This document shows, one piece after another, positions 1,965-1,988 of a stretch of 9,150 nucleotides of DNA. Each line of letters opens with the position of its first letter. Position 1 is the stretch's first letter. The notes under the pieces were generated by a model. The model was not told where the DNA came from. It worked only from the letters and a program-made list of their open reading frames with translations, and did no database searches. The stretch comes from Escherichia coli (lineage in GTDB: Bacteria; Pseudomonadota; Gammaproteobacteria; Enterobacterales; Enterobacteriaceae). The DNA lies in NCBI RefSeq assembly GCF_003334255.1, contig NZ_QOWU01000091.1; one strand, written 5' to 3'. Both the position numbers and the translations under genes were made by a program.

Positions 1965-1988
1965 TAAGTTAAGTTAAGTTAAGTTAAG
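1965..1988. repeat. Pentanucleotide microsatellite (TAAGT)x4 plus TAAG
   Basis: Direct inspection of taagttaagttaagttaagttaag. On the minus strand the repeat supplies the TAA stop (1979..1981) that ends the epmB-like fragment. Confidence 0.9.

Follow-up and report, generated by a model that had tools for sequence, protein, structure and literature searches.

The window analysed here, a stretch of 9,150 nucleotides of Escherichia coli DNA, matches an E. coli genomic island that is located at tRNA-Thr (thrW)/proA, carries myo-inositol (iol) genes and is present in seven complete E. coli chromosomes. PGAP annotation reads leftwards, on the minus strand, through a TOTE primase-domain gene, an Rpn-family nuclease, a broken N-6 DNA methylase, a partial EpmB, iolR and a frameshifted IS110 transposase. 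The interval from iolR to the hsdM pseudogene is a mosaic of iol sequence, a Fic remnant, an IS66 end, an epmB-efp piece and hsdS/hsdM debris, joined at short microhomologies, and the (TAAGT)n tract studied here lies inside it. The features of this interval are the following:

906-1739, minus strand: iolR, repressor of myo-inositol utilisation, intact (277-aa ORF; annotated by PGAP in L001; Pfam HTH_6 and SIS in L015-L023).
1740-1807, minus strand: native iolR upstream region (alignment with E. coli Z1323MEC0001; matching segment 916-1810).
1806-1814: AGTTAAGTT at the left junction between iol sequence and the plasmid-derived segment (repeat search and alignments).
1808-1964, minus strand: decayed fragment of a Fic/DOC (VbhT-like) toxin gene, approximately codons 38-95, with in-frame stops and deletions of 10 nt and 7 nt.
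1965-1988: (TAAGT)x4.8 microsatellite (TRF: period 5, 4.8 copies, 100% matches, 0 indels).
1979-2287, minus strand: chimeric 102-aa EpmB' ORF, made of 92 EpmB residues and then RKRQYGVRLT, with its TAA inside the tract.
1983-2012, unstranded: probable remnant of a tnpC-proximal terminal inverted repeat of the IS66 family (ISKox1-like), GTTAAGCGAACGCCGTATTGACGTTTA(CGA) (short blastn and alignment).
2013-2287, minus strand: epmB, 5' fragment with codons 1-92 out of ~342; identity to the native E. coli gene up to ~95.5%; a PGAP pseudogene.
2288-2366, plus strand: epmB-efp intergenic region and the first ~38 nt of efp, with the efp ATG at 2329-2331 (alignment with the native locus L007).

The nearest functional gene is iolR, whose start codon is 226 nt from the tract, the tract being upstream. 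Homology to the iol island of Z1323MEC0001 runs to about 1810-1814, and ~70 nt of native iolR upstream sequence are kept. The iol-native and plasmid sequences overlap at this left junction in a (T)AAGTT microhomology, and the 9-mer AGTTAAGTT equals 1.8 tract units.

Comparison of the whole island brought up further observations. A 43-nt stretch at 842-884 (gatctaaaattgattaaataattcgcttaacaaaaaattccgt), which separates the IS110 fragment from the 3' end of iolR, is found in the window, in the metagenome contig L005 and in L015-L023, and is missing from the L001-type island. Positions 885-5000 are nearly identical to the island of the seven complete genomes (two differences in about 4.1 kb), whereas ~5000-9073, with the TOTE primase-domain gene and a Gp2/YagK-like gene, differs by ~3-8%; this contrast suggests a recombination breakpoint near 4500-5000 and an exchange of the TOTE module between island lineages. 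At 2400-3285, a type I methylase gene (hsdM-like, N6_Mtase) is split into a number of ORFs, and an hsdS-like ORF starts directly beside the efp fragment. The Rpn-family nuclease gene contains a 12-nt tandem repeat (CCCTGCGCCATT, 3.4 copies, 3596-3636) that encodes (AQGM)n on the minus strand; L016 is without exactly one unit of it (3625-3636), which makes this repeat an in-frame polymorphic VNTR of the island. A weak 12-nt repeat of two copies (AGACAACATAAC, 91% matches by TRF) is located at 8854-8877.

Direct reading of the window letters confirmed the perfect TAAGT array returned by TRF, as the earlier note on this DNA had described it. It becomes (CTTAA)n when read on the Fic remnant's coding strand, and to its right the window continues with CGAACGCCGTATTGACG. 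The 14-nt (TAAGT)2.8 pattern, allowing at most two mismatches, is expected 0.09 times per shuffled window; four overlapping matches were found, all of them inside 1965-1988, and the tract is therefore not a chance feature. The pattern was detected neither elsewhere in the window nor in the unrelated loci compared. The earlier remark that pentanucleotide repeats are uncommon in enterobacterial coding regions is not contradicted by this tract, which is outside any functional coding region.

The array had also been suspected of being length-variable, and it is. An allele survey of about 20 sequences revealed three island alleles, with 3.8 units dominant, in otherwise near-identical island copies:

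1.8 units: plasmid remnants L003 and L004.
2.8 units: L016 (ENA ERZ27256590).
3.8 units, modal, commonest and most widespread: seven RefSeq complete genomes, metagenome contig L005, L015 and L017-L023.
4.8 units: the window and metagenome contig L006.

The 3.3-kb flanks of the island copies differ from the window by 0-1 SNP, with the exception of a cluster in the methylase pseudogene of L005. This cluster (L005 3631-4024) comprises 10 differences, all within window 2727-3121, and may stem from a paralogue by conversion or from chimeric assembly. L001 and the window have just two differences over about 4.1 kb, one of which is the 5-nt unit indel, and this makes the tract the most mutable site of its neighbourhood. 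At position 2948, the 4.8 allele is accompanied by G in the window and by A in L006; the 3.8 allele is found with either base, and the 2.8 allele with A. Alleles on both 2948 backgrounds imply recurrent length change, or recombination, and the 4.8 allele on two SNP backgrounds points to probable recurrent slippage. The array thus consists of perfect head-to-tail units within the 1-6-nt range of microsatellites, with whole-unit alleles in near-identical flanks and recurrent change, and the series of 1.8, 2.8, 3.8 and 4.8 units is what stepwise slippage predicts. That the length differences might be assembly or sequencing artefacts of an invariant tract comes to mind as L005, L006 and L016 derive from short-read metagenome assemblies. 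However, a tract of 14-24 nt is far below read length, seven independent complete genomes agree on 3.8 units, 4.8 units were found in two independent sources (the window and L006), and the differences are all exact 5-nt units in otherwise identical flanks, so that an artefact is hardly credible.

To the left, the tract grows out of a toxin gene. Window 1854-1973 matches a Fic/DOC gene that adjoins a vbhA-family antitoxin on an IncP-like plasmid. This intact homologue (L002) matches the NCBIfam VbhT and Fic models, and the Pfam Fic model weakly. Intact Fic homologues (83-91% DNA identity) align only up to a seed of nine bases, or 1.8 pentamer units, where the intact gene reads GCG CTT AAC TTA TCG CAG CTG GAA GAA (A-L-N-L-S-Q-L-E-E). 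The seed itself, CTTAACTTA, codes for L-N-L and is present both in the intact homologues and in a decayed plasmid copy. The latter is the closest relative of the window: the 166-bp remnant including the seed (1808-1973) is 99.4-100% identical to an unannotated plasmid remnant, for which matches at 99% identity or more come from about 28 plasmid records of E. coli (sizes roughly 39-46 kb), with similar counts in PLSDB and further matches in Salmonella, Klebsiella, Shigella and E. fergusonii. The carriers are ~41-kb IncP-like conjugative plasmids (MOBP/MPF_T), for example pSTEC2018_607-e and pYDC107_41 (L003, at 2995-3400, and L004), and have between kfrB and korB an unannotated decayed vbhA-Fic (VbhT-like) toxin-antitoxin remnant.

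The window and the plasmid remnant have in common, in the alignment, lesions found in these two only, namely two TAG stops, the 10-nt deletion and the 7-nt deletion; where Fic homology has ended, a further ~6 nt of plasmid backbone are common to both. The presence in the iol island of ~170 bp of exactly this decayed plasmid version indicates a plasmid-to-chromosome transfer of a very short fragment. What the island keeps cannot be counted as a Fic toxin: ~57 codons (~38-95) remain, interrupted by TAG stops and deletions, with neither an active-site motif nor vbhA.

Every plasmid alignment ends at window 1973, at TAAGTTAAG, and in the plasmid remnants (L003, L004) the tract is only TAAGTTAAG, or 1.8 units, after which the Fic sequence continues to the Fic start codon. 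Since plasmid homology stops at the seed and Fic continues beyond it in the plasmids, the tract is apparently, in expanded form, the motif at the end of a Fic pseudogene fragment of plasmid origin, with parental homology ending inside the tract. With a 1.8-copy seed already present in Fic homologues, the repeat was not made from scratch at the junction. We also considered the filler to the right (1989-2012) as diverged Fic and discarded this, as its translation in the Fic frame gives a stop and no likeness to the FERDTVA stretch, and the DNA has no match to the plasmid remnant beyond the seed.

The filler has a different source. By short-query blastn, it matches, together with the last GTTAAG of the tract, annotated IS66-family elements at their outer ends, immediately past the tnpC stop. 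The match length is 27-30 nt, with E-values of 0.03-1 in redundant databases. Four IS66-family ends were aligned, and wherever these are invariant (21 columns) the window agrees with them:

L009, Salmonella plasmid: GTAAGC GTTAAGCGCACGCCGTATTGATGTTTA, match 25/27.
L010, E. albertii plasmid: GTAAAT GTTAACCGAACGCCGTATTGACGGTTA, match 25/27.
L012, pLVPK, ISKox1: GTAAGC GTTAAGTGAGCGCCGTATTGACGG...
L008, E. coli EBJ003, element end abutting a truncated IS66 tnpB: match 26/30, including TTACGA.

The inverted repeat of an IS66-family end begins GTAA... and has the core GTTAA..CGCCGTATTGA.G.TTA, and a full tnpC-proximal donor end would read GTAA..GTTAAGCGAACGCCGTATTGACGTTTACGA. Here the core is present and its 21 invariant columns are matched over only 27-30 nt, the first 6 nt of the inverted repeat (GTAAGC) are absent, and GTTAAG overlaps the last tract unit. 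The expected tnpA-tnpB-tnpC genes and second inverted repeat were not found, as nothing IS66-like follows 2012 and epmB takes over from 2013. Searches in about 100,000 species-representative genomes gave 0 matches for the exact 24-mer of the filler and 0 for the degenerate inverted-repeat pattern GTTAAGCGNACGCCGTATTGAYGNTTA. We are fairly confident, from the matched columns, that the filler represents a 27-30-nt remnant of an IS66-family terminal inverted repeat. In L008 (1494-1535), the IS66-family end (GTAAACGTTAACGGAGCGCC...) starts exactly where the homology to another IS66 tnpB stops, a sign that, near the aerobactin (iutA) region, one IS inserted into another or a composite was truncated.

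The match of filler and last GTTAAG to the IS66 inverted repeat places a junction between the Fic remnant and the IS66 end at the tract. The Fic remnant ends with ...CGATAAGTTAAG and the inverted repeat reads ...GTTAAGCG..., the two having GTTAAG in common at the join. On the right side, ISKox1-like ends and epmB share ATCGGT/TCGGT at 2013.

For epmB, megablast against 5,426 E. coli genomes aligned the native gene to window 2013-2320 only, with up to about 95.5% identity, and alignment with the native epmB-efp locus (L007) showed homology from TCGGTGG at 2013 onward. The filler was rejected as part of epmB, since the native gene diverges leftwards from 2012 in this alignment. The tract had been placed exactly at the epmB-like truncation junction; native homology begins at 2013, and 24 nt (1989-2012) lie in between, so this placement fails. 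Of the proposal that it marks an illegitimate-recombination junction, the association with a junction holds, plasmid Fic-remnant homology ending inside the tract, while its identification as the epmB junction does not. Nor is the repeat invariant and present in intact homologues, which the earlier note would have taken as a refutation; native epmB has no such tract in the alignment. The feature is real, polymorphic and junction-associated, and its junction is that of the Fic remnant with the IS66 end, not with epmB.

The minus-strand ORF at 1979-2287 (102 aa) ends with TAA at 1981-1979, within the tract, which therefore does supply the stop codon as had been noted. Its last ten residues, RKRQYGVRLT, are read from the IS66 remnant and the tract and are not EpmB. 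The EpmB profile matches residues 15-92 and the KamA profile residues 4-92, with 85.6 bits against a cut-off of 369 (EpmB) and 98.4 against 199 (KamA). EpmB proper is a full-length protein of ~320-340 aa that reaches the family cut-off and has a radical-SAM core, and PGAP lists the present ORF as an EpmB pseudogene missing its C-terminus. The 102-aa product has an exact record in 283 blocks of public assemblies, among them GCA_000026305.1/CU928162.2, which we take to be strain ED1a. Positions 2013-2366 as a whole form a second copy, about 354 bp long, of the divergent epmB-efp promoter region, in which both genes keep their 5' ends; beyond about 2366 there is no more homology to native efp, and the short efp' ORF reads MAKYYSNDFHSS... 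With an identity of at best about 95.5% to any native E. coli epmB, the island copy may come from another Escherichia lineage, or may have decayed.

The fragment identities, the exact end-points of homology, the parental seed, the lesions shared with the plasmid remnant and the unit-number polymorphism with its homoplasy are directly established, and they are consistent with a stepwise origin. Illegitimate recombination would have assembled the island patchwork from the iolR upstream region, the 166-bp Fic/VbhT remnant, the IS66 end of ~27-30 nt and the ~354 bp of epmB-efp, with the Fic/VbhT remnant copied from an IncP-like plasmid. The Fic seed CTTAACTTA and the IS66 inverted repeat would have been joined at their common GTTAAG, by microhomology-mediated deletion or end joining. 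Growth from 1.8 units would have started once the tract lay in unselected DNA, where the surroundings are non-coding debris and there would thus be no selection against 5-nt steps, and replication slippage would then have gained and lost whole 5-nt units, from 1.8 (plasmid parent) to 2.8, 3.8 and 4.8. The joining mechanism, which is read from the junction sequences, the order of events and the neutrality of the tract are what we infer. A neutral microsatellite born in junk DNA, through microhomology joining followed by slippage growth from the 1.8-unit Fic seed, is accordingly the probable origin.

The predicted ancestor of this series, an island junction with 1.8 units, was found in none of the island copies, and its 119-aa ORF is not on record. 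This gap, together with the 3.8-unit allele being the commonest and most widespread, would suit a different course, in which a complete IS66-family end, GTAAGCGTTAAGCG... (tip GTAAGCGTTAAG), was inserted or joined directly beside the Fic TAAGTTAAG. An imperfect array of four TAAG motifs (TAAGT TAAGG TAAGCG TTAAG) would have been produced and later homogenised to perfect 3.8 units, from which slippage would yield 2.8 and 4.8. The modal allele would then owe its four TAAG motifs to the Fic seed and to the IS66 tip (GTAAGC GTTAAG, as in L009 and L012), two to each. However, a perfect array could only be reached through a G>T change and a 2-nt deletion, and no record exists of the 123-aa ORF that the intermediate would have encoded before homogenisation. 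The inverted-repeat tip also varies between family members (GTAAGC, GTAAAT, GTAAAC), so that the donor tip assumed here is one candidate among several. We consider this course rather unlikely.

Growth from the Fic seed leaves one detail of the junction aside. A 10-nt identity, TTCTTCCAGC, is common to the Fic remnant (1950-1959) and to native epmB 3 nt beyond its break point, encoding L-E-E in both, and it is not explained by seed plus slippage. TACGA, moreover, flanks the tract and the IS66-remnant block on both sides (1960-1964 and 2008-2012). The identity and the flanks may be a coincidence or a trace of template switching. A simple Fic-epmB microhomology join at TTCTTCCAGC was rejected, because the Fic-specific TACGA and the seed intervene between the motif and the epmB fragment.

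Concerning possible effects of the tract, alleles of 1.8-6.8 units were modelled. All alleles of at least 2.8 units give one and the same 102-aa EpmB' product, and from 3.8 units upwards TAA occurs in all six frames. With six frames closed and the product unchanged, the tract cannot be a frame-shifting switch; it lies in no functional ORF whose frame a unit change would shift. A crude consensus scan of 1700-2450 detected neither a sigma-70-like promoter nor an intrinsic terminator, and the Rfam gathering scan of the window returned no family. By the same consensus scan, the tract, 226 nt from the iolR ATG, is neither between nor adjacent to promoter hexamers. It is most likely neutral, judging from these sequence features.

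A contingency (phase-variation) switch would require that unit number tune iolR transcription, through promoter/UP-element spacing or through read-through from the epmB promoter, and so make myo-inositol use variable. In its favour, the tract lies upstream of iolR and shares the strand of a transcript that might read through from the 5' fragment of epmB, the native region upstream of iolR is reduced to about 70 nt, and tract length changes recurrently. Known SSR switches, however, sit within an ORF or between promoter hexamers. Here the distance to the iolR start codon is 226 nt with no overlap of a -35/-10 consensus, no reading frame can be shifted, about 20 sequences hold three short alleles with 3.8 dominant, and the origin lies in a chance seed of an unrelated toxin gene. 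The activity of the iolR promoter is bistable in Salmonella (PMC5349611), which also counts for the idea. On balance, such a switch is very improbable. Its most specific form, that in ED1a-like E. coli with the iol island the unit number sets the spacing or curvature of a hybrid promoter, or modulates epmB-promoter read-through, and hence the IolR level and a bistable myo-inositol lag, is more improbable still. If true, E. coli would possess here a contingency switch of a rare, SSR-based kind, accidentally assembled from a toxin-gene seed and an IS end.

The importance of a neutral tract of this kind is small. According to a review (PMC7015867) that cites Gur-Arie et al. 2000, K-12 has no pentanucleotide repeats and tetranucleotide repeats of at most four copies. 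As far as that statement goes, it fits the view that such tracts are tolerated only outside selected sequence. The locus shows cleanly, in a natural case, how a microsatellite is born in a bacterium with a core genome that, by that report, has no pentanucleotide repeats, and the stages are visible as a 1.8-unit coding seed, a release from selection through pseudogenisation and transfer into a scar, and the series from 2.8 through 3.8 to 4.8 units. It also corrects an annotation, as the "EpmB" pseudogene ORF ends in IS66-end and plasmid Fic-remnant sequence, and it documents the capture of about 170 bp of an IncP-like plasmid in a chromosomal island. Together with the 12-nt repeat of the Rpn gene, the tract could be a fine-scale typing marker for iol-island strains.

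The flanking pieces can be compared with the systems they derive from. Relative to VbhT/VbhA-type FicTA modules on IncP-like plasmids, window 1808-1988 is homologous (83-91% DNA identity) but is a remnant and not a module, with its stops and deletions and without active-site motif and antitoxin. The EpmB, Fic toxin and IS66 pieces that flank the tract are, by their sequence, apparent remnants and not functional entities. Microhomology-mediated illegitimate recombination, or alternative end-joining, reportedly operates in E. coli (e.g. Chayot et al. 2010), and the junctions resemble its scars in their 5-7-nt motifs (AAGTT at ~1808-1814, GTTAAG at 1983-1988 and possibly TCGGT at 2013-2017). They differ in that the mechanism would be read from junction sequences only and that the events appear to be ancient and fixed in the island lineage.

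SSR contingency loci comprise phase-variable tetra- and pentanucleotide tracts, such as CTCTT in Neisseria opa and the tetranucleotide tracts of Haemophilus. The (TAAGT)n tract is like them in having a pentanucleotide unit that is gained and lost by slippage. Unlike them, it is outside a functional ORF and outside promoter hexamers, has six frames closed from 3.8 units, has a low copy number (2.8-4.8) and has no switchable gene attached. Also comparable are the polymorphic simple sequence repeats of E. coli, which reportedly evolve by replication slippage (Gur-Arie et al. 2000; Metzgar et al. 2001; summary in PMC7015867). The tract shares with them a perfect short-unit array, whole-unit differences between strains, faster mutation than its flanks and a location outside selected coding sequence. 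It differs in its pentamer unit, a class absent from K-12 in the report given above, and in its identifiable parental seed and source gene, which make its birth traceable. The tract therefore behaves as an ordinary bacterial microsatellite that is unusual only in unit size.
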